Shown here one piece after another: positions 751 to 38,121 of a DNA stretch of 41,106 nt. This DNA comes from Spirochaetota bacterium (lineage in GTDB: Bacteria > Spirochaetota > GWE2-31-10 > MWDO01). The stretch covers positions 1-41,106 of the forward strand of contig DAONLM010000001.1 of assembly GCA_035406685.1 (NCBI GenBank). Direction: 5' to 3'. The position numbers were made by a program, and so were the translations under genes. Position 1 is the first letter of the stretch; the number at the start of each line of letters is the position of its first letter. The notes beneath the pieces were generated by a model, which was not told the origin of the DNA, searched no databases, and saw only the letters and a list, made by a program, of their open reading frames with translations.

Positions 751-3591
751 ATGAGGATATTAGAGAAAATATTTGGTTCTCAGAACGAGAGATATTTAAA
801 AAAGATTGCCCCATTAGTTGATAAAATAAATAAATTTGAAGCAAGTATAAAACATTTGTCGGATAATCAGTTAAGAGAAAAAACATTGGAATTTAAAAAG
901 AGATTAAAAAATGGGGAGACATTAGATGATCTATTGCCAGAGGCATTTGCCTGTGTTAGAGAGGCAGCATGGCGAACCTTAGGTCAGAGGCATTATGATG
1001 TTCAGATGATAGGTGCTATTGCATTACATCAAGGTAAGATTGCAGAAATGAAAACTGGTGAGGGTAAAACTCTTGCTGCTACACCGGCTATATACCTTAA
1101 TGCTCTTACCGGTAAAGGAGTTCATGTTGTAACTGTTAACGATTATCTTGCAAAAAGAGATGCAGAGTGGATGGGACCTATTTATAAGATGCTTGGTCTT
1201 ACAGTAGGGGTAATTGTGAGTGATATGGAAAATGATGAGAGAAGAGAAAACTACGCAAGAGATATTACTTATGGAACAAATAATGAATTTGGATTTGATT
1301 ATTTAAGAGATAATATGGTTTTTGATAAGGCATATAAGGTTCAGAGAGGTTTTCATTATTGTATTGTGGATGAGGTTGATTCAGTCTTAATAGACGAGGC
1401 AAGAACTCCTTTGATCATATCAGGGGCAGCAGAGAACGATGTTAGACATATTATAAATGCCAAAAAGTTGGTTCCATTTTTTAAAGAATGTGAAAAAAAC
1501 CCGGATGGTAGATATCCAGATGAGGCTGATCCATTTAATCCTCAAAAACCAGTAGGGGATTTTAAGATTGATGAAAAGTCTAAAAATATTACATTTACAG
1601 ACGATGGGATGAATAAGGCTGAAAAATTATTGAAAGAGAGAAACATAATAAGAGGATCTCTTTATGACCAGGAAAATTTTGAATATATTCATTATCTTAC
1701 TCAGGCTTTAAGGGCTCATTATCTTTTTCATAATGATGTTGATTACATTGTAAAGGATAATGAGGTTTTGATAATAGATGAACATACTGGAAGAATATTG
1801 CCGGGGAGAAGATATTCTGATGGTCTTCATCAGGCAATAGAGGCAAAAGAGAATATTACTGTTCAGAGAAGATCTAAGACTTATGCATCAATTACATTTC
1901 AGAACTTTTTTAGAATGTATGAGAAACTTGCCGGTATGACTGGAACAGCAGATACAGAGGCAGCGGAGTTTAAGAATATTTATAATCTTGATGTTGTAGT
2001 TATTCCTACAAATGTACCAGTTATAAGAATCGATCATTCCGATAGAGTATATTATAATTTTAAGGAAAAGGCAAATGCCATACTCGAAGAGGTTAAAAGA
2101 GTTCATAAAAAAGGCCAGCCAATTTTGATTGGGACAATCAGTGTTGAAAAATCTGAGATTTTTAGTAATATGCTTAAAAAGGCAAATATAAGACATAATG
2201 TCCTCAATGCTAAAAATCATGCAAGAGAGGCAGAGATAATTGCTGAGGCTGGTAGAGTTGGCGCTGTTACAATAGCGACAAATATGGCCGGTAGAGGAAC
2301 TGATATTAAATTGGGTGGAGAGAGAAGATATGATGAAATGTTTGAAGAGATTTTACAGATGGATGAGATAAGTGAAGGGGATAAGGCTATTTTACTTGAT
2401 TTTAAAGAATTTATTGATAAGATGAAACTTGATGAGGCTGAAAAACTCATAGAAAAACTGGATCCAGTTGCAAAAAGAGAGGCAAAGTCAATATTGAATT
2501 CTGCTTATGAATGGAAAGAGGAGAATAAAAGAGTAAAAGAACTTGGTGGACTTTTTGTATTAGGAACAGAAAGGCATGAGGCAAGAAGAATAGACAATCA
2601 GTTGAGAGGTAGATCTGGAAGACAGGGTGATCCTGGCGAGAGTAGATTTTATATATCACTTGAAGATGATTTGATGAGACTGTTTGGTGGTGAAAGAATC
2701 CAGAAGATGATGGCTGGGTTTGGGATGACTGGTGGAGAACCGATAGAACATCCATGGATTACTGGAACAATTGAAAAGGCACAAAAAAGAGTAGAAACAA
2801 GAAACTTTGAGATAAGAAAGCATTTACTCGAATATGATGATGTTTTAAATAATCAGAGAAAGTTTATATATGAAAGAAGAGATGAGATTCTTGAGGATGA
2901 AAATATAATAAAAAGAGTTTTGACAACAACAGAGGAGATACTGGAAGATATAATTGATGATTATACTGAAAACTTTAAGAGGAAAGGTGAACAGGCAATT
3001 GTTGATTTAATAAAAAGTATTAAAGAGACATTTTTTGTAGATATTACAAATATCGTTAAGAATCATAAATCTGATCCGGTTATTTTAAAAGATGAGATTT
3101 TTAATATTTTGAAAAAAGAACTTGAAGAAAAAGATAGAATACTTGGTCATAAAGATCTAAATGAAAGATTAAGAGGTCTATATCTCTATTTGATTGATAA
3201 ATACTGGCAGGAGCATCTTGAGAATATGGAGCAGTTAAGAGAGGCCGTATATTTAAGAGCATATTCTCAAAAAAATCCTTTAATCGAATATAAAATAGAA
3301 GGCTCAAATATGTTTGAGGATTTGATAGGGAAGATAAAAGAGAATGTTGTTTTTCAGATATTTAAAATAAAGATAGAGACTGTAACGATGTTTAATGCTC
3401 CTACTACCTCATTGACAACATCTCATGATAGTATTAGTGGTTTTGCTTTTGGCGGAGATAATAGGCAGAAATCTCAAGAAGTGGTTGATATGAAGATATC
3501 TACGACAATTGTCAATAAGGCAAAGATAGGCAGAAATGAGCCATGTCCTTGTGGAAGTGGGAAGAAATATAAACATTGCTGTGGTAGATAG
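751..3591 (+). CDS. secA: Preprotein translocase ATPase SecA
   Basis: 946 aa. It carries MKTGEGKTLAATPAIYLNAL (Walker A), VTVNDYLAKRDAEWMG, TERHEARRIDNQLRGRSGRQGDPG and the C-terminal zinc finger CPCGSGKKYKHCCG. Confidence 0.97.
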   Translation: MRILEKIFGSQNERYLKKIAPLVDKINKFEASIKHLSDNQLREKTLEFKKRLKNGETLDDLLPEAFACVREAAWRTLGQRHYDVQMIGAIALHQGKIAEMKTGEGKTLAATPAIYLNALTGKGVHVVTVNDYLAKRDAEWMGPIYKMLGLTVGVIVSDMENDERRENYARDITYGTNNEFGFDYLRDNMVFDKAYKVQRGFHYCIVDEVDSVLIDEARTPLIISGAAENDVRHIINAKKLVPFFKECEKNPDGRYPDEADPFNPQKPVGDFKIDEKSKNITFTDDGMNKAEKLLKERNIIRGSLYDQENFEYIHYLTQALRAHYLFHNDVDYIVKDNEVLIIDEHTGRILPGRRYSDGLHQAIEAKENITVQRRSKTYASITFQNFFRMYEKLAGMTGTADTEAAEFKNIYNLDVVVIPTNVPVIRIDHSDRVYYNFKEKANAILEEVKRVHKKGQPILIGTISVEKSEIFSNMLKKANIRHNVLNAKNHAREAEIIAEAGRVGAVTIATNMAGRGTDIKLGGERRYDEMFEEILQMDEISEGDKAILLDFKEFIDKMKLDEAEKLIEKLDPVAKREAKSILNSAYEWKEENKRVKELGGLFVLGTERHEARRIDNQLRGRSGRQGDPGESRFYISLEDDLMRLFGGERIQKMMAGFGMTGGEPIEHPWITGTIEKAQKRVETRNFEIRKHLLEYDDVLNNQRKFIYERRDEILEDENIIKRVLTTTEEILEDIIDDYTENFKRKGEQAIVDLIKSIKETFFVDITNIVKNHKSDPVILKDEIFNILKKELEEKDRILGHKDLNERLRGLYLYLIDKYWQEHLENMEQLREAVYLRAYSQKNPLIEYKIEGSNMFEDLIGKIKENVVFQIFKIKIETVTMFNAPTTSLTTSHDSISGFAFGGDNRQKSQEVVDMKISTTIVNKAKIGRNEPCPCGSGKKYKHCCGR

Positions 3592-3644
3592 AATTTTTAG
3601 ATATTTATAAGTTATTAAAAGATATTTTTATCAAGGAAATTTTT

Positions 3645-4316
3645 ATGAAGAAAGGATCAATTATAATTTTAATTTATTTTATTTTTTCTCTATTTTTTGC
3701 ATTTAGTAAGGATAACTCATCTGATATTTTATTAAATGACAAAGTTGAAAATCTGGATTTTTTGACTGAGTTAGAGATTGAAGTTGTAAAAGAATTAAAT
3801 CTTGCAAGAACAAATCCAAAACAGTATGCAGAATATCTTAAAGAATACAAAAAGTATTATAATGGTAATTATTTACAATTCCCAAATAAGATAAGAATAA
3901 TTACTAATGAAGGTATTAGGGCAGTGGATGAGGCAATCAATGAACTATTATCTTATACTCCTATGCAACCACTAAAAATTTCTAAAGGGATGTCGCTTGC
4001 GGCAAAAGATCATGTTAATGATCAGGGAACAAAAGGATCGCTTGGTCATACTGGAAGTGATGGCAGTTCTCCATTTGTCAGAATGAATAGATATGGCAAA
4101 TGGGATGTAACTGCTGGAGAGAATATTGACTATGGCAATGATGTTGCAAGATATATTGTATTTTCTTGGATAATAGACGATGGAGTTTCTGGTAGGGGTC
4201 ATAGAAAAAATATTTTTAATAAGAATTTCAATATTGTTGGAGTTGCTTTTGGTTCTCATAAAATATATGGGTATATGTGTGTAATGACTTTTGCAGGGAA
4301 ATATACAGAAAAATAG
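3645..4316 (+). CDS. Secreted CAP/SCP (YkwD-like) domain protein
   Basis: It has an N-terminal hydrophobic signal sequence. The motifs ELNLARTNP, GHTGSDGSSPFVRMNRYG, GENIDYG and GHRKNIF are typical of bacterial CAP/PR-1 domain proteins. Confidence 0.65.
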   Translation: MKKGSIIILIYFIFSLFFAFSKDNSSDILLNDKVENLDFLTELEIEVVKELNLARTNPKQYAEYLKEYKKYYNGNYLQFPNKIRIITNEGIRAVDEAINELLSYTPMQPLKISKGMSLAAKDHVNDQGTKGSLGHTGSDGSSPFVRMNRYGKWDVTAGENIDYGNDVARYIVFSWIIDDGVSGRGHRKNIFNKNFNIVGVAFGSHKIYGYMCVMTFAGKYTEK

Positions 4317-4368
4317 AAAGTTAATCTCCAGCATAGTTTATTATTTTTAATAGTTCAGACAAAATTTT

Positions 4369-5859
4369 CTATTTTTTGAAAGATTCGTAGAGTTCTAATA
4401 CTAGTTTATTAAAATAAGAAAAATCGTTTAAGCCTAAATCCATTAATATATTTTTATTTATTGTATTATAGATTTGCTCAATACTATTTTCTTTGTGTGA
4501 TATTATATTTGCTACATAGATAATACTTACAAATTTTTTGTAGTCTTTGTTACTCTGCCATGGTTTATGATGAAATTCAATAGCATCTATTAATTTTTCT
4601 GGGAAATTCCATTTTTGAGCAAGAAGTGCTCCTACCATTGAATGATTATAACCAGATGTTATCTCTTCTATAATTCTTACTGGGATACCTTTTTCGTGAC
4701 ACAAAAGATTGATTTTATTAATTAGCGAAGGATTTAAACCGAGTAGTACTATTTTCCCAAAGTCATGAAGTATTCCGCCGATATAGCAATCTTCTAATTC
4801 TTCTTTAAGGCCTAATTTTTTTGCAATGTGAAATGCATTAAAAGCAACCATATACGAATGATTCAGTATATCTTTCATTTTATTTATATCATATCTTTGT
4901 GATAAGATTTTATTTGTTTGATATGAGTATATGATATTCCTAAGACCTTTTAATCCTATTAATTTAATAGCCTCAAGTAAAGACGAGATTTTTCTTGGTA
5001 GCATAAATAGAGCTGAGTTTGAAAATTTTAATATATCCCCTGTTAAAGTTGGATCCTTAGAGATAATTAAAGAGATATCTTTTATATCTACATCTGGATT
5101 ATTTAATTTTTCTTGAAGTTTTATAATATTTTCTGGAAAATGTGGTATATCATTTATCTCTTTTATTATTAGCTCATTTACAATTGTCGTATGCTCTTCT
5201 GTTATTAAAGAGATAGGTATACTTATAGAAGTGATTGTGCTAGAATCATCAAAATTTAAAGAATAAGCATCAGCATCGAGTCCTAACTTTTTCAACATAA
5301 GAATTGAAATTATTATGCCAAGGCCAGCGCCTTCTTCACTCTGAAATATAGTAGAGAATGCTTCATCTATTGTTTTAAATTCTTTTGCTTTATCTTTTTT
5401 TTCATTTATAATGTGTATTTCATGTTCAAGTATTTTCACATTATTTTTTACAGAAATAATAAATCTATCATCTTTTATTACTAATAAAGTATGAATATGA
5501 TATCCCATCTCTTTTTGTAATTTTGAATATTCTTCTAAATTTGACATTATATTATTTTTAAAGTTTTTAATTCCTCTATTGTATTCTTCAATATTATTAT
5601 AATTTATGTTATTTTTCTCAAAATATATTCTTTTAACATTTGCTTTTATTGCATTCATCAACATCTCTTTGTAACAATATGATATAAAATCAAAAATATT
5701 ATCTTTTCCTATTGAATCTAAGAATACATTTATTATACTATTCATTTTTTGGATTTGAGTAATAGAAAGAGATGTAGTATCAATAACTAATTCATTTCCA
5801 TTGTTTATACAATTTTTAATTATCTCTTCTGTTACTTCATCTATACCATAAATATTCAT
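4369..5859 (-). CDS. HDOD-domain signalling protein with an N-terminal histidine-kinase-like ATPase module
   Basis: The C-terminal half carries HDOD-type motifs (LISKDPTLTGDILKFSNSALF, EAIKLIGL, GGILHDFGKIVL). The N-terminal half has NAIKAN and EEGAGLGI, resembling the N and G boxes of GHKL ATPases. Confidence 0.6.
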   Translation of the reverse strand: MNIYGIDEVTEEIIKNCINNGNELVIDTTSLSITQIQKMNSIINVFLDSIGKDNIFDFISYCYKEMLMNAIKANVKRIYFEKNNINYNNIEEYNRGIKNFKNNIMSNLEEYSKLQKEMGYHIHTLLVIKDDRFIISVKNNVKILEHEIHIINEKKDKAKEFKTIDEAFSTIFQSEEGAGLGIIISILMLKKLGLDADAYSLNFDDSSTITSISIPISLITEEHTTIVNELIIKEINDIPHFPENIIKLQEKLNNPDVDIKDISLIISKDPTLTGDILKFSNSALFMLPRKISSLLEAIKLIGLKGLRNIIYSYQTNKILSQRYDINKMKDILNHSYMVAFNAFHIAKKLGLKEELEDCYIGGILHDFGKIVLLGLNPSLINKINLLCHEKGIPVRIIEEITSGYNHSMVGALLAQKWNFPEKLIDAIEFHHKPWQSNKDYKKFVSIIYVANIISHKENSIEQIYNTINKNILMDLGLNDFSYFNKLVLELYESFKK

Positions 5860-5901
5860 ACCTTATCCTTGAAGAAGATTCATAATCTTATATTTAAAAA
5901 G

Positions 5902-5930
5902 ATTATAGTATAAAAAAAGAAAATTTTCAA
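5902..5930 (-). promoter_or_regulatory. Sigma70-type promoter for the HDOD gene (minus strand)
   Basis: On the minus strand: TTGAAA (5930..5925), 17 nt, TATAAT (5907..5902). It is about 45 nt upstream of the start codon at 5859. Confidence 0.5.
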
Positions 5931-6008
5931 GAAAATAGTTTATAAGATTTTGAGAAAAATAAGATTTTTTATTTAGAATTAAATATTATTTAATTTATAT
6001 TCAAGGAT

Positions 6009-6720
6009 GATTTTATTTTTAGGCAATTTTTTTATTTTTTTTCTTAAATTTTGTAAAGGATTTTCTCAAAAATTTTGTGATTAATATATAGAAATATTTT
6101 TTAACAGGAGGTATAAGTTATGCAAGAGTTTGACTTTGTAGTTAATGAAGATCTTTTTAAAAAAATTAAAAATTTAAAGGAGAAGAGAGGAGGATATCTT
6201 TCTCTTATTGTAAGAGATATAATCTTATTGATGCTTCCAGTATTAAAAAAGAAGCATCTTTTTGAAAAAAGACGGGATAAAGATTATAGATTTATAAATG
6301 CCACTCACAGGATTAGAATCTATATTCCAGAAGAGATTTATAATGAATTAAAACTGGTGCATGATCAGTTAAATTCATTCAGTATGGCAATTCTTGTTAG
6401 AGAATTGCTGGAAGTATATTTTGCTGGAATTGAAATAGAAGGTGAAGAGGAGTTTATAAAAAGTATACAAAAATTAGAAAGAGAGATTGAAAATTTAAAA
6501 GCAAGTAAGGCTGTGGTAGTGAAGATTGGTTCCCAAGATATCCCATGCTCGATAGACACTAACGACTATTTTTTACTCAAATTTAGCTCAAAATTTTGCC
6601 TGAAAGAGATAAAATTTTTATAAAAGTTAAAATTTACCCAACATTTTTATATTCTTTCAACTTTCTCTTTAACTATACATTAGACTAAGTTTGCTCTTTT
6701 TGTTGTCTAAAAATAAAATC
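6009..6720 (+). mobile_element. Complete IR-bounded RHH cassette, copy B (candidate non-autonomous mobile or modular regulatory unit)
   Basis: IR-L GATTTTATTTTTAGGCAA (6009..6026) and IR-R TTGTCTAAAAATAAAATC (6703..6720) match at 17/18 positions as inverted repeats. Between them lie a conserved 97-nt 5' module, one ORF and a 3' tail. No transposase is present. Confidence 0.55.
6120..6623 (+). CDS. Tandem ribbon-helix-helix-like small protein, family copy B (divergent subfamily)
   Basis: AGGAGG lies 7 nt upstream of the ATG. It has two beta-helix-helix modules (FDFVV-NEDLFKKIKNLKEKRG-YLSLIVRDIILLML and IRIYI-PEEIYNELKLVHDQLN-SFSMAILVRELLEVYF). It is colinear with copies A, C, D and E. Confidence 0.75.
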   Translation: MQEFDFVVNEDLFKKIKNLKEKRGGYLSLIVRDIILLMLPVLKKKHLFEKRRDKDYRFINATHRIRIYIPEEIYNELKLVHDQLNSFSMAILVRELLEVYFAGIEIEGEEEFIKSIQKLEREIENLKASKAVVVKIGSQDIPCSIDTNDYFLLKFSSKFCLKEIKFL

Positions 6721-6753
6721 TCTCCTTAACTTTTTTTTCTTATGTAATATTTT

Positions 6754-6782
6754 TTGACAAAAAAAATTCTTTATAGTATATT
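6754..6782 (+). promoter_or_regulatory. Sigma70-type promoter for the 6839..10704 operon
   Basis: TTGACA (6754..6759), 17 nt, TATATT (6777..6782). It begins 34 nt after the IR-R of cassette B. Confidence 0.55.
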
Positions 6783-10780: not shown

Positions 10781-10802
10781 TCATACGACAATTGTCGTAT
10801 GA
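10781..10802. repeat. Perfect 22-bp palindrome carrying the GACAATTGTC core
   Basis: TCATACGACAA|TTGTCGTATGA, intergenic, about 80 nt after the HAD gene stop. Confidence 0.9.
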
Positions 10803-10886: not shown

Positions 10887-10941
10887 ATGGGGATATCCCC
10901 ATGAATAGAGGGGGATATCTGCCTCAATGACATGGGATATC
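10887..10941 (+). promoter_or_regulatory. Three GGGATATC boxes at exact 22-bp spacing (iteron- or operator-like, or a small structured RNA)
   Basis: GGGATATC occurs at 10890, 10912 and 10934. The first box sits inside the 16-bp palindrome ATGGGGATATCCCCAT (10887..10902). This is the only G+C-rich patch in a 397-bp AT-rich spacer. It is flanked by direct repeats TATAAAATAACAAT (about 10849 and 10944). Confidence 0.45.
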
Positions 10942-11101
10942 TGTATAAAATAACAATTATTTTTATTATAGTAATAAATATGTAAAGTGTCTTTTTTTGG
11001 TAAGTTTATTAAAAGTTTTGAAAATTTAGAAGAAATGAATTTACTTTTACATTTTTTTTTGTTATCTTTTTAAAAGAATATATTATTTAGGAGCAAAAAG
11101 A

Positions 11102-13974: not shown

Positions 13975-14289
13975 ATGTCAAATTCTAATTCTGATAATAA
14001 ATTTAAAATTAATCTTTTTGGTCAGGACTTTTTTTTTACCACTACTTATGACAAAAAAGAGGAGTTGTTAAGAGTTGCAAATTATTATAAAAACATAGTG
14101 GATTCTCTTTTAGAAAAATTTCCAAATAAGCCACATCTTGATATCCTTGTTTTATCAGGGCTTATGATAGCAGACGAACTTTATGCCCTGTTAAAATCAA
14201 GAAATAAAAATCTTAGCACAGAAGAAAAAGAGATAGAGAGAGCAATTTTGGATTTAATTAACTCTCTTGATAATGTATTAAAAGATTAA
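13975..14289 (+). CDS. zapA: Cell division protein ZapA-like
   Basis: 104 aa. INLFGQDFFFTT..DKKEELLRVANYYKNIVDSL....P......ILVLSGLMIADELY fits the ZapA layout. Confidence 0.55.
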   Translation: MSNSNSDNKFKINLFGQDFFFTTTYDKKEELLRVANYYKNIVDSLLEKFPNKPHLDILVLSGLMIADELYALLKSRNKNLSTEEKEIERAILDLINSLDNVLKD

Positions 14290-14303
14290 AAGGGGTTCTT
14301 TAT

Positions 14304-14786
14304 ATGATATTGGAAGTTATAAAGTATGGCAATCCTTTATTGAGAGAAGAATCAAAGCCAATAGAAGAGATCAATGAAGAAGTTATTAACCTTGTAAATA
14401 ATATGTTTGAGACCATGTATTTAAATCATGGAATTGGTCTTGCAGCAATACAGGTAGGTATTCCTAAAAGATTATTTGTTACAGATATTCCAGATATTCC
14501 AAATAGTAAACTTGTTATGATAAATCCAAAAATAATAGAATTCTCAAAAGAAAAGATTATTTACGAAGAGGGCTGTCTATCTGTACCAGATATTGAGGAT
14601 GAGGTAGAAAGATCTAAAAGCATTATTGTGGAATTTAAGGATCTTAATGGAAAGGTAAAGTTAATTAAGGCAACAGGTTTATTATCAGTATGTATTCAGC
14701 ATGAGTATGATCATCTTGATGGGATTCTTTTTATTGATAAGGCTCTTAATCTTAACAAAGAGGGTGGTAAGAAAGTTAAAATCTAA
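14304..14786 (+). CDS. def: Peptide deformylase
   Basis: All three motifs are present: GIGLAAIQVG, EGCLSVP and QHEYDHLDG. Confidence 0.95.
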   Translation: MILEVIKYGNPLLREESKPIEEINEEVINLVNNMFETMYLNHGIGLAAIQVGIPKRLFVTDIPDIPNSKLVMINPKIIEFSKEKIIYEEGCLSVPDIEDEVERSKSIIVEFKDLNGKVKLIKATGLLSVCIQHEYDHLDGILFIDKALNLNKEGGKKVKI

Positions 14787-14788
14787 AA

Positions 14789-15154
14789 CTATTTAAATAT
14801 CTCTTTTAAAAATTTAATAGAGGCTTCTACTTTTTCAGAAACAACTGCGTAACATATCATTGGTACTCCATGATGTATATAATACTCTTTTATTTTTGAT
14901 AATAATTTTTCTTTAAATTCCTCCACTGTTTTTGCATCTTGAATATTAAACTCTTTAACTAAATCAATTGTTCTTTCTAAATAAAGAATTTCTTCTTCCA
15001 AAACAGTAAGATTTTCTTTATAAACATGCTCACTTTTTTCTTTTATCTCTTCATTTTTTTCATACTCCTCTTTTTTCGTTTCTATATATAAAAGCGATTG
15101 TTCCAAGGCAAAAAGAATAATCTTCTTAAAAATTTCCACCTCATTTAATTTCAT
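14789..15154 (-). CDS. Hypothetical protein (no family recognised)
   Basis: The ORF is open to 15196, but the ATG at 15154 is preceded by AAGGGGGATAAT (a Shine-Dalgarno-like sequence), so the shorter form is preferred. The product is Glu/Lys-rich and looks helical. Confidence 0.5.
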   Translation of the reverse strand: MKLNEVEIFKKIILFALEQSLLYIETKKEEYEKNEEIKEKSEHVYKENLTVLEEEILYLERTIDLVKEFNIQDAKTVEEFKEKLLSKIKEYYIHHGVPMICYAVVSEKVEASIKFLKEIFK

Positions 15155-15260: not shown

Positions 15261-16235
15261 TTATATCTTTCTTAATTTGCATATAAAAAAACCTTCGTAT
15301 TGATCAGTGGGAATAATTCTTAAACATCTTGCTATTGATTTATCAAAGATATTGTTTTCATAAGAGAGAAATGGTTTTCTATATCCCTCTATATCTTTAA
15401 ATTTATCTTCAATCTCTTCTATTATAACTCTCTCTTTTTTTAAAATTTCATCCACAACCATTTCATTTTCGTAAATATTTAAGGTACAGGTAGAATAGAC
15501 AATTGTCCCATTCTTCTTACAGAGTCTTATCCCATTCAATAATAATTTCTTTTGTAATGAATTAAATTTCTGGATGCTATTCTTTTTCCAGTTTTGATAA
15601 CTCTTTTGGTCATAAATAGTAATGCCACCCTCACCGGAACAGGGAGCATCCACAAGAACTCTATCATAGATATTCTTTATATCTTTTAAGAAATTTTCAC
15701 CTCTTGTTTGATAAAAATTTATGATGTTTGCTCCTAAAATTTTTGCGTTATGTTTTAATCTCTCCATTCTTATATAGTCTGGCTCAATAGCATCTATATT
15801 GCCTCTGTTATTCATAAGGGCTGCAATGTATGTAGTTTTACTTCCAGGGGCACTTGCCATATCAAGTATATTTTCATTCTCCTCTGGTTTTAATATTAAA
15901 ACAGGTAACATACTCGACAGATTTTGCAAATATATATATCCATTCTTTGTTAGGTTGTGGTTTAATAGTATATTGTCTAAATTTTCATTAAAAACAAAAG
16001 CATCTTTTATAAGGGGGATATCCCTGAATTTAAAACCATCCTTTTGAAGGAGCTTCATTACATAACTTTTATCTGTTTTTAGAGTGTTTACTCTTATTGA
16101 GCTTTTTCTTTTTATCCTGAATGAATTAATGATCTTATTATAATCTGCTGGAGAAAAAAAATCCCTAAGAGATTTTAACAAATCTTGTGGCATCTTATTT
16201 ATTAAGTCATTGATCGAATATTTCATCTTACCCAA
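15261..16235 (-). CDS. NOL1/NOP2/Sun-family (RsmB/RsmF-like) RNA cytosine-C5 methyltransferase
   Basis: It has DMASAPGSKTTYIAALM (SAM binding), VLVDAPCSGEG (motif IV Cys) and GTIVYSTCTL (motif VI Cys). Confidence 0.85.
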   Translation of the reverse strand: MGKMKYSINDLINKMPQDLLKSLRDFFSPADYNKIINSFRIKRKSSIRVNTLKTDKSYVMKLLQKDGFKFRDIPLIKDAFVFNENLDNILLNHNLTKNGYIYLQNLSSMLPVLILKPEENENILDMASAPGSKTTYIAALMNNRGNIDAIEPDYIRMERLKHNAKILGANIINFYQTRGENFLKDIKNIYDRVLVDAPCSGEGGITIYDQKSYQNWKKNSIQKFNSLQKKLLLNGIRLCKKNGTIVYSTCTLNIYENEMVVDEILKKERVIIEEIEDKFKDIEGYRKPFLSYENNIFDKSIARCLRIIPTDQYEGFFICKLRKI

Positions 16236-18388: not shown

Positions 18389-19195
18389 TTAATTGAGTAA
18401 ACTTAGATTCTCAATTAGATTTATAACAAAATTTAACATTAAATTCAATGATTTTTCTTGAATTGTGAATATATTATCTTTATTAGAATGAATATTATTC
18501 CATATAGAAGGGTAAGTATCTTTATTGTTAGCATAATTTAGTGCTTCATAATATGGGACAATTGTCAATACCACGCCTTCATAGTGGAATGTATGAACAG
18601 AGACCATATCAGTATATGGGACTGGAAGATGTATATATTTAAAATTATTATTCTTTGCTACCTTGGTTGCAAAATCTATAAGACGCTGACTACAATCTAT
18701 TTTTCCAGATTTTTTTGCTATCAGAACAGCATCACCTATACCAGAGAGTTCAAGAATAAAGATGCCTTTATTTTTCCCTTTGCTGCAATGATTTTTAATA
18801 TAATCAAAAGAGCCTATTTTGTCTATAATTTTTGTCATATTACCATTTACTATACTTCCACTTAATAACCCGCCAACAAATTCTTCTTTATCATTAAAAA
18901 CAATTTTTATTGTATAAAAAGGTGACTTATCTTTTAAATATAAAAGAAGAGAAAGTAAAACTGCAACTGATGAGGTATTATCATTTGCTCCTTCATCAGT
19001 GCCCATAGATATATCATAATGGGCAAGAAATATTATTTCACCATCATTAGTGCCATTAATTTTTACTTCTATATTGCAACCTGCATCATAGGACAATTCT
19101 CTGAATTCTATTTTATTTTTTCTTAAGAATTTTTTTATAAAATCTACTCTATTTTTTGAATTAATAATACCAATCACAATCTCTTTTATTTCCAT
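18389..19195 (-). CDS. M28-family peptidase-like protein (no signal peptide seen)
   Basis: IIFLAHYDISMGTDEGANDNTSSVAVLLSLL resembles the M28 motif HYDS..GA.DNASG. Confidence 0.45.
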   Translation of the reverse strand: MEIKEIVIGIINSKNRVDFIKKFLRKNKIEFRELSYDAGCNIEVKINGTNDGEIIFLAHYDISMGTDEGANDNTSSVAVLLSLLLYLKDKSPFYTIKIVFNDKEEFVGGLLSGSIVNGNMTKIIDKIGSFDYIKNHCSKGKNKGIFILELSGIGDAVLIAKKSGKIDCSQRLIDFATKVAKNNNFKYIHLPVPYTDMVSVHTFHYEGVVLTIVPYYEALNYANNKDTYPSIWNNIHSNKDNIFTIQEKSLNLMLNFVINLIENLSLLN

Positions 19196-20109: not shown

Positions 20110-20129
20110 AATAGGACAATTGTCCTATT
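20110..20129. repeat. 20-bp perfect palindrome with the GACAATTGTC core, overlapping a stop codon
   Basis: AATAGGACAA|TTGTCCTATT. The TAG stop of the 20125..21267 gene (20125..20127) lies inside the right arm. Confidence 0.9.
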
Positions 20130-21267
20130 CTTTTATCCCTCTTATCACCGCTACATAACAATTATCATATTTCTGCTCTAATATTGACATATCTGGGATT
20201 GTTTTTACATCTTTAAATCCAGCATTATTTAAAGCATTAACCCAATCTCGCCATTCCATAAAACCATGCCTTGGTCTTATATCTTTATCTAATTTTACAT
20301 TCCAATAATCAGACAGCGTATTAAGGATAAATTCTTGCTGAATCATTTTATTACCGACTGGTCTAACTGTTTCTACTATAATAAAAGAGCCACCTTTTTT
20401 CAAAGTTTTTAAAATTTCATTTAATGAAAATCTTAAATCATAAGCAACATGTATTGCATTTACACCCCATACAACATCAGCACTTTCTGGCTCATAACCT
20501 TGACTAGTTAAATCCATATTAAAATCAAGTTTTCTAAAATCAAAGGCGTTAAGATCTTCTGTGATTGTCAATAGATCTTTTTTAGTAGTTCTTAACATTT
20601 TGTTTGCGATATCTGTAAATATATATTTAAAATTATTTAATGGTAATTTTTCTTGCAGTCTTTGAATTAAGAATTGCTTTGTGCCACCACCCATTCCACC
20701 ACCAATTTCTATTATTGTTGGATTTTCTCTCTGTGAAATATCCCAATTTAATATCTTGGCGCCAGCTATATTATGAACATTATAAAAAAGATTATTACTA
20801 TAATACTCATTAGTAATATTTATATTTTCTGGGGAAAAAATTATATCAACTCCACTCTTTTTAGAAGAAAGAAAATCTGGATAATTATCTGCCATCAATT
20901 GAAGCATATTAAATGCAGCTATACTGTCAGGTGCCTCGTTAAAAGCTTTTTTTCTTATCTCTTCTAAATTATAATCTATTTTTTTATTTCCCCATTTATA
21001 TAAAAAATCACTGTTTTCTTCTTTAATTTCAATATAACCATCTAAAGATAGCCTATCCAATATCCATTTTAAAGCATTTTTAACCTTATCTTCATATCCT
21101 TTGTTTGCTATAATATTTTCTAATGTAGTAAAATCATTCAATATATTTTTTATATCTGTTTTAACAAGAATATCATCGATTAATTTTAATAGATAATAAT
21201 CTGTTAATTTCCATATATCTCTTATTGTTTTATTTATTAAATCATTTAAATACCAATCTTCAAACAT
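20125..21267 (-). CDS. Class I SAM-dependent methyltransferase with an N-terminal helical or winged-helix-like extension
   Basis: It has IIEIGGGMGGGTKQF (motif I), YIFTDI, and ADVVWGVNAIH..LKKGGSFIIVE. No DNA-methyltransferase motifs (DPPY/PCQ) are present. Confidence 0.7.
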   Translation of the reverse strand: MFEDWYLNDLINKTIRDIWKLTDYYLLKLIDDILVKTDIKNILNDFTTLENIIANKGYEDKVKNALKWILDRLSLDGYIEIKEENSDFLYKWGNKKIDYNLEEIRKKAFNEAPDSIAAFNMLQLMADNYPDFLSSKKSGVDIIFSPENINITNEYYSNNLFYNVHNIAGAKILNWDISQRENPTIIEIGGGMGGGTKQFLIQRLQEKLPLNNFKYIFTDIANKMLRTTKKDLLTITEDLNAFDFRKLDFNMDLTSQGYEPESADVVWGVNAIHVAYDLRFSLNEILKTLKKGGSFIIVETVRPVGNKMIQQEFILNTLSDYWNVKLDKDIRPRHGFMEWRDWVNALNNAGFKDVKTIPDMSILEQKYDNCYVAVIRGIKE

Positions 21268-21522
21268 TATTTTTTACCTCGTTTAGAAAAATTGTATTTT
21301 ATTATAGAATAGAATACAATAAATATTTATATTTGTCTATAAAAATAATTATGCTTTAAAAGATATTTTTAGATTTTATTAGGAGAATTGTCCTATTTTT
21401 TTGAAAAAAAAGACAAAAATTCATAATCGCTGAAAATGATTAAAATAATATTACTTCTTATTTTTCCTAACAAGAATGCTTGAAATAATTTCAGTAAGAA
21501 TACTGGAATAACTTTATTTTAA

Positions 21523-22144
21523 GCGATTTTAAAAAAGTGCCAAAAAAAATGAAAAAAAATTTTAATTTTTGTAAAGGATTTTTTCACTTTTTTTGTGATT
21601 AATAAGTGAGGAGGAAAATATGAAAAAAGAATTTAATTTTATGATTGACAACAAACTTGAAAAAAATATTCTCTCTTATTGTAAAAAGAGAAAAATTAGT
21701 TACAACAGGGCAATAAATGAGATTATAGAGTTAATGTTGCCAGTAATAAAGGAGATACACTATTTTTCAGAGGAGAATGATTGCAAATATCAAAGAATAG
21801 ATGCTGTAAAAAAAATTCATTTGTATATGCCTAAAGAAATTTATAGAGAATTAAAGCTTGTTCATAGTAATCTTAATTTTTATAGCATTGCGATTCTTGT
21901 TAGATTTATGCTTGATATTTATTTTGAGTGGCTTGAAGAGACAAATGATAATGAGACAAAAATAAAAGAGAGGGTAAATGAGATAATAACTAAAATTGAT
22001 GATAGATTGAAAAAAAGTAATTACGAGGTAATAAAAAATGAGTTGAAAGTAAGGATAGGACAATTGTCTTGCAATCCATTTCCTCATACTCTTAAAATTC
22101 ATTATAATTTTGATTTCTCAATTCACAAGATAGAATTTTTATGA
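21523..22144 (+). repeat. Degenerate RHH cassette, copy C (diverged 5' module, no recognisable IR-R)
   Basis: The 5' region GCGATTTTAAAAAAGTGCCAA...TTTTTGTAAAGGATTTTTTCAC-TTTTTTGTGATTAATA is homologous to the B/D 5' module but diverged. The stop codon is followed within 19 nt by the -35 box of the next promoter. Confidence 0.5.
21620..22144 (+). CDS. Tandem ribbon-helix-helix-like small protein, family copy C
   Basis: GAGGAGG lies upstream of the ATG. It has FNFMI-DNKLEKNILSYCKKRK-ISYNRAINEIIELML and IHLYM-PKEIYRELKLVHSNLN-FYSIAILVRFMLDIYF. It is colinear with copy B, with a similar C-terminus (..HKIEFL versus ..KEIKFL). Confidence 0.75.
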   Translation: MKKEFNFMIDNKLEKNILSYCKKRKISYNRAINEIIELMLPVIKEIHYFSEENDCKYQRIDAVKKIHLYMPKEIYRELKLVHSNLNFYSIAILVRFMLDIYFEWLEETNDNETKIKERVNEIITKIDDRLKKSNYEVIKNELKVRIGQLSCNPFPHTLKIHYNFDFSIHKIEFL

Positions 22145-22223: not shown

Positions 22224-22538
22224 ATGCCAAGATGTAAAAAGAAAAGATGTTGTAGATTTTTAGATTCTGAAAAGATTTTTAAACCAGCGGGAATTCCTTT
22301 TAATCAACTTGAAGTAATCGAAATATCCCTTGATGAATTTGAGGCAATTAGGTTATGTGATTATGATAAATTAAGTCAAATTGGTGCTGCTGGGAGAATG
22401 AATATTTCAAGAGGAACTATTCAACGGCTTTTAGAATCTGGAAGATACAAAATAGTAGATGCTTTATTGAATAATAAAATTTTAAAAATAAATAACATAG
22501 AACTAAATCAAAGTATAAATCAAAATGAAATCAAATAA
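22224..22538 (+). CDS. DUF134 (UPF0251) family predicted DNA-binding protein
   Basis: MPRCKKKR.CR......FKPAGIP...LE.I.ISLDEFEAIRL.D...LSQ..AA..MNISRGT.QR.L...R.K...AL is a characteristic DUF134 N-terminus followed by a helix-turn-helix. Confidence 0.75.
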   Translation: MPRCKKKRCCRFLDSEKIFKPAGIPFNQLEVIEISLDEFEAIRLCDYDKLSQIGAAGRMNISRGTIQRLLESGRYKIVDALLNNKILKINNIELNQSINQNEIK

Positions 22539-29173: not shown

Positions 29174-29195
29174 ATAAGAGGGATATCCCCCTTAT
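29174..29195 (-). terminator. Palindromic hairpin (GGGATATCCC core) downstream of murA
   Basis: ATAAGAGGGAT|ATCCCCCTTAT is a 22-bp palindrome with one mismatched pair. On the minus strand it is followed by TTATTTTTT. It lies between the murA stop (29232) and the peptidase start (29150). Confidence 0.5.
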
Positions 29196-30598: not shown

Positions 30599-31412
30599 AA
30601 ACAGAAAGGAAGGCGATTTTATTTTGAGGCAATTTTTTTTATTTTTTTCTTAAATTTTGTAAAGGATTTTCTTAAAAATTTTGTGATTAATATATAGAAA
30701 TATTTTTTTATAAACTTAAGGAGTAAGGAGGATTTTTTATGGATATTAATAAAATTTTAGAAAACTACAATGCTGAACATGAGTTTCACTTTGTAGTAAA
30801 ATCAGAAATGAAAAAAAGGCTTGTAAAATTAGCAGAAAAATTAAATTTATCTTTATCAAAACTTGTTGTGTATATTCTTCAATTGTTTTGTAACAGGATA
30901 AAAAAGATATACTGCTTTGGTGTTGAGGATGGAAATACTTATGAAAGAATTGATGCTACTGATAAAATTAGGGTATATCTCTCAAAAGAGGATTATAGAT
31001 TCTTAAAAAAGATTCATGCGGATCTTAATTTTTTCAGCATGGCAGTCCTCTTGAGGAGAATTGTCGCACTTTTTTTGGAAGAATATGAGAAAATGGGGCT
31101 TTTAGGTGTGGAGAAGAAATGTAGTCTTGTGACATTGAGGTTATGGTTGAAAATAACAAAGATAAAGAGGTGGAAAAAGAATAAAGAATTGTCGCACTTT
31201 GAAGGCAATACCATGCCCTTCTATAAGGCGATCTATAATAATTGCTATCAAGTAATAGGTTTTGAAACCTATTATTGACCATAATTTTATTTAGAAATGA
31301 ATAGATCTATTATAACTTTTTCTCAAACAAAGTTAACATGAGGATAAATGTATTTTTTTAATTGCCTAAAAATAAATTAGTGCGCAAACAGAAAGAAAAG
31401 CAATTTTATTTT
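30599..31412 (+). mobile_element. Complete RHH cassette, copy D, with IRs and flanking 27-nt direct repeats
   Basis: The direct repeats are AAACAGAAAGGAAGGCGATTTTATTTT (30599..30625) and AAACAGAAAGAAAAGCAATTTTATTTT (31386..31412), differing by 3 G-to-A changes. IR-L is GATTTTATTTTGAGGCAA (30615..30632). IR-R is TTGCCTAAAAATAAATT (31362..31378). Confidence 0.55.
30739..31278 (+). CDS. Tandem ribbon-helix-helix-like small protein, family copy D (full length, 179 aa)
   Basis: AAGGAGG lies upstream of the ATG. It has two beta-helix-helix modules (FHFVV-KSEMKKRLVKLAEKLN-LSLSKLVVYILQLF and IRVYL-SKEDYRFLKKIHADLN-FFSMAVLLRRIVALF). It is close to copies A and E. Confidence 0.8.
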   Translation: MDINKILENYNAEHEFHFVVKSEMKKRLVKLAEKLNLSLSKLVVYILQLFCNRIKKIYCFGVEDGNTYERIDATDKIRVYLSKEDYRFLKKIHADLNFFSMAVLLRRIVALFLEEYEKMGLLGVEKKCSLVTLRLWLKITKIKRWKKNKELSHFEGNTMPFYKAIYNNCYQVIGFETYY

Positions 31413-31459: not shown

Positions 31460-31467
31460 AAGCAAAG

Positions 31468-32091: not shown

Positions 32092-32178
32092 ATTTTATCA
32101 ATTAAAAATGAGATAACCAATCATAATAATTAAATGAAATTATAGTTATTTCATAAATATATTCTGTAAATGTAATAT

Positions 32179-32196
32179 GTGCGACAATTGTCCTAT
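32179..32196. repeat. Intergenic copy of the extended GACAATTGTC palindrome
   Basis: GTGCGACAATTGTCCTAT (core 32183..32192), about 90 nt downstream of the START-domain gene. Confidence 0.85.
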
Positions 32197-32274
32197 CTGT
32201 ATAAATTAGGTCTCTTTATTTACCCCTCTTATTGAAAAAATAGATTGTTACATCTAATTAATTATTTTTTTCTT

Positions 32275-32303
32275 TTGACAAAAAAGATTTTATTAGATAT
32301 AAT
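32275..32303 (+). promoter_or_regulatory. Consensus sigma70 promoter for the NUDIX / hybrid-kinase operon
   Basis: TTGACA (32275..32280), 17 nt, TATAAT (32298..32303). Confidence 0.6.
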
Positions 32304-32341
32304 ATTTTAAATAAAAAGTTTTACTTTTAAGGTGTAATGGC

Positions 32342-32767
32342 ATGGCAAAACTTCCTATTCAGGTAGATGTTATTTTGTTTTATAGAGACAAAGATGGTAT
32401 AAAATATCTCTTGCTCAAAAGAACAGAAGAGAGAGGGGGATTCTGGCAACCTGTAACAGGTGGAGTAGAAGAAGGGGAAGATATTTTATATGCAGCAAGA
32501 AGAGAGGTAATGGAAGAGACTGGTTTTTTAAAAGTAAAAAAAATGTATGATGTTAAGTATAAATTTTCTTTTAAAAATGGGGATAAAGAGATTACAGAGT
32601 ATGTATTTGCCTTTGAGGTAGATAGTATGAATGTAAATTTTTCAAAAAGAGAACATTCAGAAATTGTTTGGGTTTCTTATGAAGATGCTTTAAAATATTT
32701 AAAGTGGGATACAAATAAAGAGGCTTTAAAAAAAATAAATGATTATTTAACAAGAGATATTCAATAA
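32342..32767 (+). CDS. NUDIX hydrolase
   Basis: The Nudix box is GGVEEGEDILYAARREVMEETG. Confidence 0.85.
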   Translation: MAKLPIQVDVILFYRDKDGIKYLLLKRTEERGGFWQPVTGGVEEGEDILYAARREVMEETGFLKVKKMYDVKYKFSFKNGDKEITEYVFAFEVDSMNVNFSKREHSEIVWVSYEDALKYLKWDTNKEALKKINDYLTRDIQ

Positions 32768-32768
32768 A

Positions 32769-35273: not shown

Positions 35274-35309
35274 TTTAATAATTTCTTTTCTAAAAAATGG
35301 AGGAATTTT

Positions 35310-36041
35310 ATGAGCAAAAGAGCACTTGTTACTGGTGGAAGTCGTGGTATTGGTAGAGCGATAAGTATAATGCTTGCAAAAAATGGATTTGAGGTTATTA
35401 TAAATTATAAGAGCAATAAAGAGTCAGCAATGGAGACAAAACTTGAAGTAGAAAATTTAGGGGCAAAATGTTCTCTATTGCAATTTGATATATCTGATTT
35501 TAAGAATGCTTACAAAATAATCGAAGAAGAGATAGCAACAAATGGTAAAATTGATGTTCTTGTATTCAATGCTGGCATTAGAAGGGATTCTCTTTTTCCA
35601 GTAATGAAAGAGGAAGATTGGGATAGTGTAATTGATGTTAATTTAAAGAGTTTTTATTATATTACCAAGCCAGTTATAAAATCAATGTTTGAGAATAAGT
35701 ATGGTAAGATAGTTGTTGTTAGTTCTACTTCTGGTCAGACTGGTATGCCGGGACAGGTTAACTATTGTGCTTCAAAATTTGGACTCATAGGGGCGGCAAA
35801 GTCTCTTGCAGTTGAGCTTGCAAGAAGGGGGATTAATGTAAATATTGTTGCACCAGGCTTTATTGATACAGAGATGACAAAGGATTTACAGGATAAATTT
35901 GAAGAGATTAAAAAGACTATTCCGATAAGAAGAATAGGGAGTGTAGAAGATGTTGCAAATGCTGTTGAGTTTTTAGTAAGTGATAAAGCAGATTACATAG
36001 TTGGCCAGATAATTGCTGTTAATGGTGGATTGTTGACATAA
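35310..36041 (+). CDS. fabG: 3-oxoacyl-ACP reductase (SDR family)
   Basis: It has ALVTGGSRGIGRAI, NAGI, the catalytic YCASKFG and the PGFIDTEMT motif. Confidence 0.8.
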   Translation: MSKRALVTGGSRGIGRAISIMLAKNGFEVIINYKSNKESAMETKLEVENLGAKCSLLQFDISDFKNAYKIIEEEIATNGKIDVLVFNAGIRRDSLFPVMKEEDWDSVIDVNLKSFYYITKPVIKSMFENKYGKIVVVSSTSGQTGMPGQVNYCASKFGLIGAAKSLAVELARRGINVNIVAPGFIDTEMTKDLQDKFEEIKKTIPIRRIGSVEDVANAVEFLVSDKADYIVGQIIAVNGGLLT

Positions 36042-36096
36042 ATATTTAAATTGTTTTTCCTTTCTATTCAATTCTTAATATTCATAAAGGGTATGT

Positions 36097-38121
36097 ATGT
36101 ATAAGAATCTATTTTTAATATTTTTCTTTTTGATAATAGCATCGTGCAATAATTATTATCCATTGGATAAATTAAACGATAGAGTAATTGACTCAAATGG
36201 GCAGATCTTTAAAGAGAGTTTAAAGGATGTAAAGGTTCAGGATATTGCTAAATATATAACTGATAAAAATTATTACTATTTTTATGGGCTAATTTATTAT
36301 AATAACTTTGGTCTTGATAAATGGAGTAGCTATTTTTTTATTCAGGCAATATCAACAGACAATCTTTTTAAAAAAGAGGCTTTTAATTCTTTATTAAAGA
36401 TTTATATTAAAGAAAAAAATTGGGAGAATTTAAGACTTCTTTTTATAAATTATGGAGATTTTATAGATGAACAATATCTTTATACTGTAAGGTGGTTTAT
36501 TGATGGCATAAAACCAGAAAATTTTTTAAATTTTCCACAAGATATAGATTTTTTAAACATTATTGAATATATTATTGAAGTAAATGAGGAATATTTTAAG
36601 AATAATGAAGAATCTTATTTAAAAAATTATCTATATTCTTTACTATTTAAAAATACAGATAATGAGAATTTTAAAAATTTTATTGCAAAGATTGTTACTA
36701 TTAAAGAGGATCCTATTTTTAAATTAATATACTCTTTTCTTAGCAATGATAAAAAAGAGTTCAAAGATAATTTAAAATCCTCACTATCTTCTGCCTCTTC
36801 TTATGAAGATTTTGATAATATAAGAGAGATGGCTATAAAATTAAATTGTAAAAAATATTTATTTAAAGAGTTAGATGATATTTATAAAAGAAGCATATAT
36901 GCAGAATATTTTTATGTTATTGATAATTTAAGATATGGAAATAATAATGGTACTCTTCTATGTAAGGAATTTCTTAAAAAAATCAATCAATACAAAAACG
37001 ATCCTTTTTATAATGAGATGGATTATAATATAAGGCAGATAATTCTTAATAAAGAAGTCTCCTTTAATGAAAAATGGCTTTCTGATGTTATATCTCTTGT
37101 AAATGATTATCCGGATAAATATAGTTCTTTATCTTTATTGAATCTTGCTGTAAGGAGTGCTATTTATCAAAAAAAGATTGATATTTTACTGAAAAACATT
37201 GATAAGATTGATTTTAATAGACTGGAAGAATACAATAGAACCTCTCTTTTTTATGCTCTTTATCTTATTGATAAAAATAAAGAAAAATGGAAAAATCTAC
37301 TCGAACAGTATCCTATTTCTTATGGGTATTTAAAGATAAACAATGGAGTTGATCCTGATAAAATATTAAAAGAAAAAAAGAAATTCAATAATGAAGATTT
37401 TTCTGAATATGGTAGAATTTTTTCTAAAAAGCTTGATTATTATCTTTTATTTAATAATACGACAATTGTCGCACAAATAAAGGAAAATAAAGAACTTAAT
37501 GATACGGATCGATATGATATTTATTGTAAATTGCATTCGTACTTTTTAAAAAAAGAGAACTATTATGAGGCTGTCAGGTATGCTATATTAGCAGCCATTT
37601 CTCTTTATGGGGAGGATTTAAAAAAGATAGATGTTGAGACATTAAAGAGTATGTTTCCTTTTCATTATAAGGATCTGGTTTTTAAATATTCAAAAGAGAA
37701 TGATATAGATCCAGCACTCTGTTATGGGGTAATTAGAGAAGAGAGTAGATATAGTGCGACAATTGTCTCAGTTGCAAATGCCATAGGGTTAATGCAGATA
37801 ATCCCAAAAACAGCAAAATTTATTGCTTCTAAGTTAGGAATGGAATATTATGATTTAACATCACCAGCAGATAATATAAGGATTGGGACTTTTTATTTAA
37901 AGTTTTTAAGAGAGCACTATTTTAAAGAGATTGGTTTTATTCTGGCAAGTTATAATGCAGGTCAGGGAAAAACAAAAAGTTGGTATAATAGTTATAAAGA
38001 TTTTTCAGAGGATATAATTTATGAATTAATACCAGTTGATGAGACAAGAAATTATATAAGAAAAGTTTTAAGAAGTTACTATATTTATTATTATCTTATA
38101 AAGATAGAGACAAATAAGTAA
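36097..38121 (+). CDS. Lipoprotein lytic transglycosylase (Slt70-like: helical N-domain plus C-terminal SLT domain)
   Basis: It has lipobox IIASC. The C-terminus has the SLT motifs VIREESRYS, AIGLMQIIP and SYNAGQG. Confidence 0.8.
   Translation: MYKNLFLIFFFLIIASCNNYYPLDKLNDRVIDSNGQIFKESLKDVKVQDIAKYITDKNYYYFYGLIYYNNFGLDKWSSYFFIQAISTDNLFKKEAFNSLLKIYIKEKNWENLRLLFINYGDFIDEQYLYTVRWFIDGIKPENFLNFPQDIDFLNIIEYIIEVNEEYFKNNEESYLKNYLYSLLFKNTDNENFKNFIAKIVTIKEDPIFKLIYSFLSNDKKEFKDNLKSSLSSASSYEDFDNIREMAIKLNCKKYLFKELDDIYKRSIYAEYFYVIDNLRYGNNNGTLLCKEFLKKINQYKNDPFYNEMDYNIRQIILNKEVSFNEKWLSDVISLVNDYPDKYSSLSLLNLAVRSAIYQKKIDILLKNIDKIDFNRLEEYNRTSLFYALYLIDKNKEKWKNLLEQYPISYGYLKINNGVDPDKILKEKKKFNNEDFSEYGRIFSKKLDYYLLFNNTTIVAQIKENKELNDTDRYDIYCKLHSYFLKKENYYEAVRYAILAAISLYGEDLKKIDVETLKSMFPFHYKDLVFKYSKENDIDPALCYGVIREESRYSATIVSVANAIGLMQIIPKTAKFIASKLGMEYYDLTSPADNIRIGTFYLKFLREHYFKEIGFILASYNAGQGKTKSWYNSYKDFSEDIIYELIPVDETRNYIRKVLRSYYIYYYLIKIETNK

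Follow-up and report, generated by a model that had tools for sequence, protein, structure and literature searches.

An iterated 16-bp palindrome in genes and spacers of an AT-rich Spirochaetota bacterium from anaerobic digesters

Over-represented sequence words such as HIP1 (highly iterated palindrome 1), DUS and USS (DNA uptake and uptake signal sequences), Chi, KOPS (FtsK-orienting polar sequences), parS, and NBS (Noc-binding site) have each pointed to a chromosome-level mechanism. The sites of Noc (NBS), SlmA (SBS, SlmA-binding site), MatP (matS), and ParB (parS) are palindromes of 13 to 16 bp with sharp cores and tens to hundreds of copies, mostly intragenic because what counts is the place on the chromosome; two of them, parS and NBS, are 16-bp palindromes that have paralogous readers in the same cell. 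In cyanobacteria, the short palindrome HIP1 (GCGATCGC) is 15- to 300-fold over-represented, and a role in chromosome structure has been proposed, its function being unresolved (PMC5861425); copies lie inside open reading frames (ORFs) as well as in the spaces separating them and are partly conserved at orthologous positions (PMC5861425, PMC4390886). Operators of the winged-helix CopY/BlaI/MecI group (RNYKACANNTGTMRNY) have the core KACANNTGTM within a 16-bp palindrome (PMC7253601). Here, we report an iterated palindrome, TRSGACAWWTGTCSYA, whose 10-bp core GACAATTGTC recurs in a 41,106-bp stretch (the window) of contig DAONLM010000001.1 of a Spirochaetota bacterium (assembly GCA_035406685.1). 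The motif belongs to this known class of iterated genomic words, here in a very AT-rich uncultured spirochaete of anaerobic digesters, and provides a convenient case for the question that HIP1 raises, i.e., whether iterated palindromes persist because selection favours a chromosome function or are made by drive.

The secA product of the window is encoded identically on anaerobic-digester metagenome contigs and on contig JAKPDG010000159 of the metagenome-assembled genome (MAG) GCA_029552865.1. For a wider sample, 78 loci (cited below, where necessary, by L numbers) were fetched from metagenome contigs via alignment of a family of ~175-amino-acid (aa) tandem ribbon-helix-helix (RHH) proteins. 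Overlaps of at least 88% identity were removed; the window and the fetched loci together made up 829 kb, with 788 kb outside the window.

The window (28% G+C; ~89% coding) contained nine exact copies of GACAATTGTC, at all of the positions listed in a preliminary description made from the letters of the window. This is far above chance (mean, 0.03 in dinucleotide-preserving shuffles; nine or more in 0/100). The word was the top over-represented 10-mer of the window under an order-3 Markov model (z, ~70), and matches with no more than one mismatch numbered 14 (1.16 expected). The preliminary description had named beforehand a genome-wide excess over a Markov model as the point on which its idea of a general function would stand or fall; outside the window, 47 more exact copies were found in contigs of this low-G+C Spirochaetota population, against 0.6 (order 3) or 2.2 (order 5) expected, and the enrichment is therefore genome-wide, not local. 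Exact sites in all 829 kb came to 56, where 0.63 were expected (order 3; ~90-fold). Chance or base composition as the cause was ruled out by the shuffles and the Markov models. The density first put forward, one copy per 4 to 5 kb, is true within the window (1 per 4.6 kb) and too high elsewhere (1 per 16.8 kb); given the outside density, 2.45 copies would be expected in the window (P = 0.001), whose density is 3.7-fold above the average. Copies per contig or locus outside the window fit a Poisson distribution (chi-square p = 0.55).

The anatomy of the motif was read from 112 half-sites (56 distinct sites). Position −3 was T in 81%, position −2 was A or G in 85%, and position −1 was C or G in 75%; position −4 was weakly A, with flank composition at background further out, and the motif is therefore TRSGACAATTGTCSYA. 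The same base frequencies confirmed that the recurring flank classes reported earlier are real. The two centre bases were AT in 56, TA in 10, and AA/TT in 4 of 70 sites, and never G or C. The spacing was equally strict, with 70 occurrences of GACA-N2-TGTC compared to 1 to 4 for any other spacing from 0 to 8 bases. Since GACATATGTC has TAC/TAG flanks identical to those of GACAATTGTC, the full motif is a 16-bp palindrome, TRSGACA-WW-TGTCSYA, a length and a WW centre that weaken a reading in terms of CAATTG methylation. Outside the RHH family, the excess of one-mismatch variants lay chiefly at the outermost core position, core positions 2 to 5 being nearly invariant. Isolated good half-sites were ~5-fold enriched.

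Flank bases of the two halves were statistically independent, and position −1 was pairable in 18/56 sites (18.3 expected), from which it follows that each half is read separately, without selection for base pairing. That each half matches the consensus alone fits two identical protein subunits, not a stem that must pair; the independence of the flank bases speaks against a selected hairpin or cruciform. Similarity among copies ended ~8 bp on either side. The preliminary description had held that this was not a spacer-confined REP (repetitive extragenic palindromic) element, as borne out by the genic copies and by the lack of similarity past that point. An origin as a miniature inverted-repeat transposable element (MITE), REP element, or other insertion was ruled out, with 61% of copies genic, nothing in common beyond ~8 bp, and orthologues differing by substitution without a change in length.

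Of the 56 sites, 34 were genic and 22 were intergenic. The frame G-ACA-ATT-GTC (Thr-Ile-Val, or TIV) was used by 30/34 genic copies. The 243,195 codons of the sample held 100 TIV tripeptides, 30 of them in motif form, where codon usage predicts 0.23 (of Val codons, 8% are GTC; codons ending in G make up 12% of the total). What the motif costs in coding terms is thus directly countable, as ~30% of all TIV tripeptides in the sample are written as the motif. TIV itself was 1.6-fold above the amino-acid-composition expectation, with TII, TLV, and TVV depleted. Because TIV is written in rare codons, the DNA motif has shaped proteins, not the reverse; codon use in this way shows a DNA-level cause, in line with the DNA-level function that had been argued for, partly from the copy in secA. 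A protein-level cause was ruled out by the rare GTC and G-ending codons and by the 39% of copies in spacers. At the RsmB/F site, most relatives have GIIV, and the window has GTIV within a conserved catalytic motif (NG-TIV-YSTC); the ancestral GIIV has here been turned into GTIV. Alignments of orthologues at genic sites showed no length change, so copies arise by substitution, not by insertion. Genic copies leaned to the last third of genes (16 versus 5 in the first third; Kolmogorov-Smirnov [KS] p = 0.07).

Density was 4.6-fold higher in spacers (0.217 per kb) than in ORFs (0.047 per kb). Among 21 classifiable spacer copies, 7 were in convergent spacers (3.1 expected), 13 were in tandem spacers (11.2 expected), and 1 was in a divergent spacer (6.7 expected; p = 0.006). 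Copies in tandem spacers were mostly closer to the end of the upstream gene. The rarity in divergent spacers means that the motif avoids promoter regions, which argues against a classical promoter regulon. This placement is compatible with a site that must leave initiation undisturbed, or with an additional terminator role for some of the copies. A hairpin-plus-T-tract pattern was present at two of the three window spacer copies (10787 and 20115) and absent at the third (32183).

Conservation was assessed at two loci, L198 and L203 of run SRR8371833, from a relative whose proteins are 73 to 74% identical. The RsmB/F site (74% identity) is exact there (AAT GGG ACA ATT GTC TAT), although neighbouring synonymous positions differ. 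The two sites in the SLT transglycosylase gene keep the G and ACAATTGT and lose the final C, giving 9/10 each. Between the two genomes, synonymous third positions are 60% identical, and third positions with G or C are kept in 18%; those within the motif were kept in 4/6 (P = 0.011; three orthologous genic sites, one relative). We take this as modest evidence for constraint with some turnover. More distant relatives (51 to 68% protein identity) had one exact site in ~50 kb, too small a sample to bear on the lineage specificity of the enrichment.

Like HIP1, the motif is over-represented and lies in ORFs and spacers, and it may also be partly kept at orthologous positions (three genic sites compared); unlike HIP1, it has another sequence, occurs in another phylum, holds 16 bp of information instead of 8, and has a degenerate centre and no known cognate methyltransferase. 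At 1 site per 17 kb, versus about 1 per gene for HIP1, it is not hyper-abundant. The likeness to HIP1 and uptake words that had been drawn at the outset is therefore apt for an iterated palindrome in genes and spacers but not for the density, which is far below both. With DUS/USS and with REP/MITE elements, the motif shares the character of dispersed short words, with spacer copies behind genes and terminator-like hairpins possible. DUS/USS are asymmetric 9- to 12-mers of naturally competent organisms and ~15 times denser, whereas the motif is palindromic; REP/MITE elements are longer, spacer confined, and spread by insertion, whereas motif copies are alike over ~16 bp and arise by substitution. 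The core GACAWWTGTC fits the KACANNTGTM of CopY/BlaI operators, with the same ACA-NN-TGT core, a strict 2-bp centre, and 16 bp in all. Nevertheless, the outermost positions disagree, and CopY/BlaI/MecI operators number one to few per genome, in promoters, compared to about a hundred sites here, mostly genic (34/56), with 1/21 spacer sites divergent versus 6.7 expected. No significant CopY/BlaI homologue was found in the 829 kb (a weak test). In layout and copy number, the motif comes closest to the sites of Noc, SlmA, MatP, and ParB, being a 16-bp palindrome with 56 dispersed sites in 829 kb, mostly genic, and accompanied, like the parS/NBS pair, by a second distinct palindrome (see below). 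It has no sequence similarity to parS, NBS, SBS, or matS and is denser than any of them.

The motif is a sharply defined 16-bp palindromic DNA signal across the chromosome, maintained at a cost to coding sequence. We tentatively suggest (probability, roughly 0.42) that a symmetric DNA-binding protein reads it and acts chromosome-wide. Copies would be high-affinity binding sites of one symmetric (dimeric) sequence-specific protein, which would serve the whole chromosome, not single promoters, as a roadblock or as an architectural, nucleoid-occlusion-like, or partition-like factor. Sites form by point substitution where tolerated (in genes, almost solely in the Thr-Ile-Val frame; in spacers, mostly behind genes) and, once formed, would be retained by selection. 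The observed grounds for this reading are the enrichment, the anatomy, the codon-level cost, the origin by substitution, the partial conservation, and the avoidance of divergent promoters. The 16-mer could also serve as a defined bait in the search for the reader protein of this uncultured lineage; candidates are the tandem-RHH paralogues of both subfamilies, a DUF134 protein (window, 22224-22538), and other small DNA-binding proteins that the genome encodes. Several points weigh against a chromosome-wide reader. No protein binding the 16-mer was identified, and sharp cores and distorted codon use would likewise result from a sequence-specific drive (biased repair, or uptake with recombination). 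One site per 17 kb is denser than known Noc, SlmA, or MatP sites. The conservation stems from three orthologous genic sites in one relative, and the terminator-like pattern at two of three window spacer copies means that some copies may act at the RNA level. All extra sequence was fetched via tandem-RHH genes and is hence a non-random sample of the genome; the sole hint of regional bias, on contigs of up to ~45 kb, is the higher density of the window.

A HIP1-type word tied to methylation or repair, in which the core is recognised by an orphan methyltransferase, or by a repair or recombination process directed to the motif, and this either drives its accumulation or makes it useful (mismatch-repair strand discrimination or marking of self DNA in transformation), is unlikely in our judgment. 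The motif does behave like HIP1 in its excess, its spread over ORFs and spacers, and its apparent partial conservation. One spacer copy (L139:14996) lies 126 bp upstream of a gene for a 615-aa D12-class N6-adenine DNA methyltransferase (L139:15131-16978). In 21 kb from a distant relative, a single exact copy was found, upstream of an N6_N4 methylase-SNase gene. Both links are post hoc anecdotes, a lead and not evidence; with 16 bp of information and an AT or TA centre, no single methylase site of 6 to 8 bp (CAATTG or CATATG) fits, and the density is 10 to 50 times under that of HIP1. The distant relative is Spirochaetes bacterium GWD1_27_9, with the copy at L196:6212, the fusion gene at L196:6528-7856, and an extra AATTGTC half-site adjoining. 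The preference of spacer copies for gene 3′ ends and convergent spacers and their avoidance of non-transcribed divergent spacers would also be expected if the palindrome worked in transcripts as a terminator, 3′-end stabiliser, or processing site; the hairpin-plus-T-tract pattern at 10787 and 20115 and the lean of genic copies to the last third of genes point the same way. Such an RNA-level hairpin is nonetheless very unlikely, as pairable flanks are not in excess (a longer stem is therefore not selected), the GAC/GUC stem of 3 bp is weak by itself, 61% of copies are intragenic, some of them in essential genes in which termination would do harm, and the window has no Rfam match. An uptake or self-recognition signal, accumulated like DUS and USS via biased uptake and recombination, would account for a sharp core with weaker flanks, genic copies in tolerated frames, and spacer copies behind genes, able to serve as terminators. 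It is highly improbable here, given that known uptake sequences are non-palindromic and occur ~1 per kb and that the second palindrome behaves alike; to our knowledge, natural competence has not been described for this phylum.

The tandem-RHH family itself has been put forward as the reader, the motif then being an operator or target of an expanded family whose paralogues, sharing one DNA specificity, would bind dispersed palindromes. The family is real and abundant, with five copies in the 41 kb, 78 loci fetched from these metagenomes, and 212 public clusters (50% identity), and it is unannotated, with sub-threshold Pfam RHH matches. An AlphaFold model predicted two beta-alpha-alpha units followed by a long helix (mean predicted local distance difference test score [pLDDT], 75; core, ~90). 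The best Foldseek matches were tandem or single-chain RHH DNA binders (F-plasmid relaxosome proteins, AvtR, VirC2, and single-chain Arc), and the predicted beta-strand residues are nearly invariant in the main subfamily. The two predicted units and the RHH fold matches thus lend support to the earlier label of "double RHH," and a pseudo-dimeric protein of this kind could read a short palindrome. The fold matches are nevertheless weak (best E = 0.005), and copies of the motif were no nearer to family genes than random positions were (KS p = 0.25), which leaves the earlier proposal of the motif as the target of this family without positional support and led us to reject the motif as a boundary or operator of its genes. 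The conserved 94-nucleotide (nt) region upstream of family genes contained no copy. Half-sites in RHH ORFs had been offered as a hint of binding; the near-sites (GAGAATTGTCCCAC) are instead one inherited coding segment, RELSHF, found in dozens of paralogues, in a few of which mutation has turned it into the exact motif. The 121 kb of DNA from relatives (L195 to L205; a weak test) yielded no family member; 14.5 kb of it came from the relative that keeps motif sites. We regard this family as an improbable reader.

Family genes stand alone, each with a conserved upstream and downstream region (upstream, 6009-6102 versus 30615-30708, 96% identical; downstream, 460-546 versus 31290-31376, 78% identical). 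One window gene has paralogues in NCBI MAGs that carry the name "Spirochaetota bacterium." Contigs often break at family genes. Loci L001 (1-9150) and L004 (1-4780) have identical RHH-secA genes and wholly different genes upstream of the RHH gene, from either a rearrangement or an assembly join at the family member. In L003, identity to the RHH gene at 6120-6623 is only 86%, whereas secA is identical to that of the window.

A k-mer scan yielded a second palindrome, GGGATATCCC, with 37 sites in 829 kb (~59-fold over expectation). It extends to ARGGGGATATCCCCYT, an unrelated 16-bp palindrome of equal half-site length. Copies were divided between spacers (n = 20) and genes (n = 17; frames GDIP and GISP), were rare in divergent spacers, and had independent half-site flanks. 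The two palindromes did not co-vary across contigs, either positively or negatively. Two unrelated 16-bp palindromes so alike in layout suggest either a general process that acts on palindromes or a pair of readers, in which case the second palindrome would fit a further reader protein built like the first. A chromosome-wide addressing system, with TRSGACAWWTGTCSYA and ARGGGGATATCCCCYT as orthogonal words, a measurable proteome cost, and dedicated symmetric readers, possibly tandem-RHH members, would be a long shot. Several spacer copies of GGGATATCCC resemble GC-stem terminators.

Full-text searching of the literature turned up the 10-mer in unrelated contexts only, with no report of it as a genomic word. 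In a species-level scan (one genome per species; query, ATRSGACAATTGTCSYAT), whose listed matches did not extend as far as the source species, most were single matches in unrelated taxa. The 18-mer ATACGACAATTGTCGTAT also occurs in unrelated taxa, namely, WOR-3 MAGs (L025, L076, L083, L113, and L095), where it forms part of a longer repeat, caatacggcaatacgACAATTGTcgtattgccgtatt, and Flavobacterium (L038, L039, and L114), where it occurs as operator-like pairs of spacer sites 1.5 to 3.4 kb apart.

Coordinates in the window are given in Table 1. Three of the four one-mismatch copies in the preliminary description (343, 5179, and 21383) were correctly placed, and the fourth, given as 31066, is at 31056. 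The "isolated half-site near 19088" is in fact a fifth one-mismatch copy, at 19092; the half-site at ~10013 is present. The gene for a 380-aa class-I methyltransferase (20125-21267, minus strand) is flanked on both sides by near-identical palindromes, TAGGACAATTGTCCTATT at 20112 and TAGGAGAATTGTCCTATT at 21380 (91% identity over 23 nt).

Table 1. Copies of the two palindromes and members of the tandem-RHH family in the 41,106-bp window
Feature	Position	Location	Frame, product, or sequence	Remarks
Exact copy of GACAATTGTC	3504..3513	inside secA, residues 919-921 of 946	G ACA ATT GTC, TTIV	
Exact copy of GACAATTGTC	10781..10802 (core, 10787-10796)	spacer, 83 bp past HAD hydrolase gene, 306 bp ahead of DOMON gene	perfect 22-bp palindrome TCATACGACAATTGTCGTATGA	terminator-like pattern
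Exact copy of GACAATTGTC	15498..15507	RsmB/F rRNA methyltransferase gene (minus strand)	TIV, in conserved motif NG-TIV-YSTC	
Exact copy of GACAATTGTC	18557..18566	M28 peptidase gene (minus strand)	TIV frame	
Exact copy of GACAATTGTC	20110..20129 (core, 20115-20124)	begins 1 bp past stop codon of 380-aa class-I methyltransferase gene (minus strand)	20-bp palindrome AATAGGACAATTGTCCTATT	terminator-like on both strands
Exact copy of GACAATTGTC	22059..22068	inside tandem-RHH family gene (21620-22144)	other frame, GQLS	
Exact copy of GACAATTGTC	32183..32192	spacer, 92 bp past 207-aa ORF, 150 bp ahead of NUDIX gene	asymmetric flanks, GTGC / CTAT	not terminator-like
Exact copy of GACAATTGTC	37461..37470	SLT transglycosylase gene, residues 456-458	TTIV	in relative, ACG ACA ATT GTT (9/10)
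Exact copy of GACAATTGTC	37758..37767	SLT catalytic motif, residues 555-557	ATIV	in relative, CCG ACA ATT GTA (9/10)
One-mismatch copy	343..352	inherited RELSHF coding segment of tandem-RHH family	GAGAATTGTC	
One-mismatch copy	5179..5188	HDOD gene	TACAATTGTC, TIV frame	
One-mismatch copy	19092..19101	M28 peptidase gene	GACAATTCTC, RELS	
One-mismatch copy	21383..21392	divergent spacer, 380-aa methyltransferase gene / tandem-RHH gene	GAGAATTGTC	
One-mismatch copy	31056..31065	inside tandem-RHH gene	GAGAATTGTCGCAC, RRIVA	
Tandem-RHH gene	1-437	plus strand		partial
Tandem-RHH gene	6120-6623	plus strand		
Tandem-RHH gene	21620-22144	plus strand		
Tandem-RHH gene	30739-31278	plus strand		
Tandem-RHH gene	40749-41106	minus strand		partial
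Second palindrome GGGATATCCC	10890-10899			
Second palindrome GGGATATCCC	16015-16024			
Second palindrome GGGATATCCC	29180-29189			

Other repeats were also seen. Three GATATC-centred repeats exactly 22 bp apart (10892, 10914, and 10936; window, 10890-10945) lie upstream of a DOMON-rhomboid operon, ~100 bp from the 22-bp palindrome at 10781-10802, and may be an operator array. A dispersed word, AGGGACAGACC, occurred ~33 times (L127, L130, L137, L144, L004, and others; window, ~29817, minus strand), often paired in tandem within AT-rich spacers and in one case lying in an IS200-like Y1 transposase gene (L162:6423-6914), and may be an element of the REP/RAYT (REP-associated tyrosine transposase) type. 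The same population carries a CRISPR array (L124, ~14000-14900, minus strand) with a repeat of roughly GTTTAAGTCCCATATGGTGGGGTTAAAAC and a period of ~65 bp.

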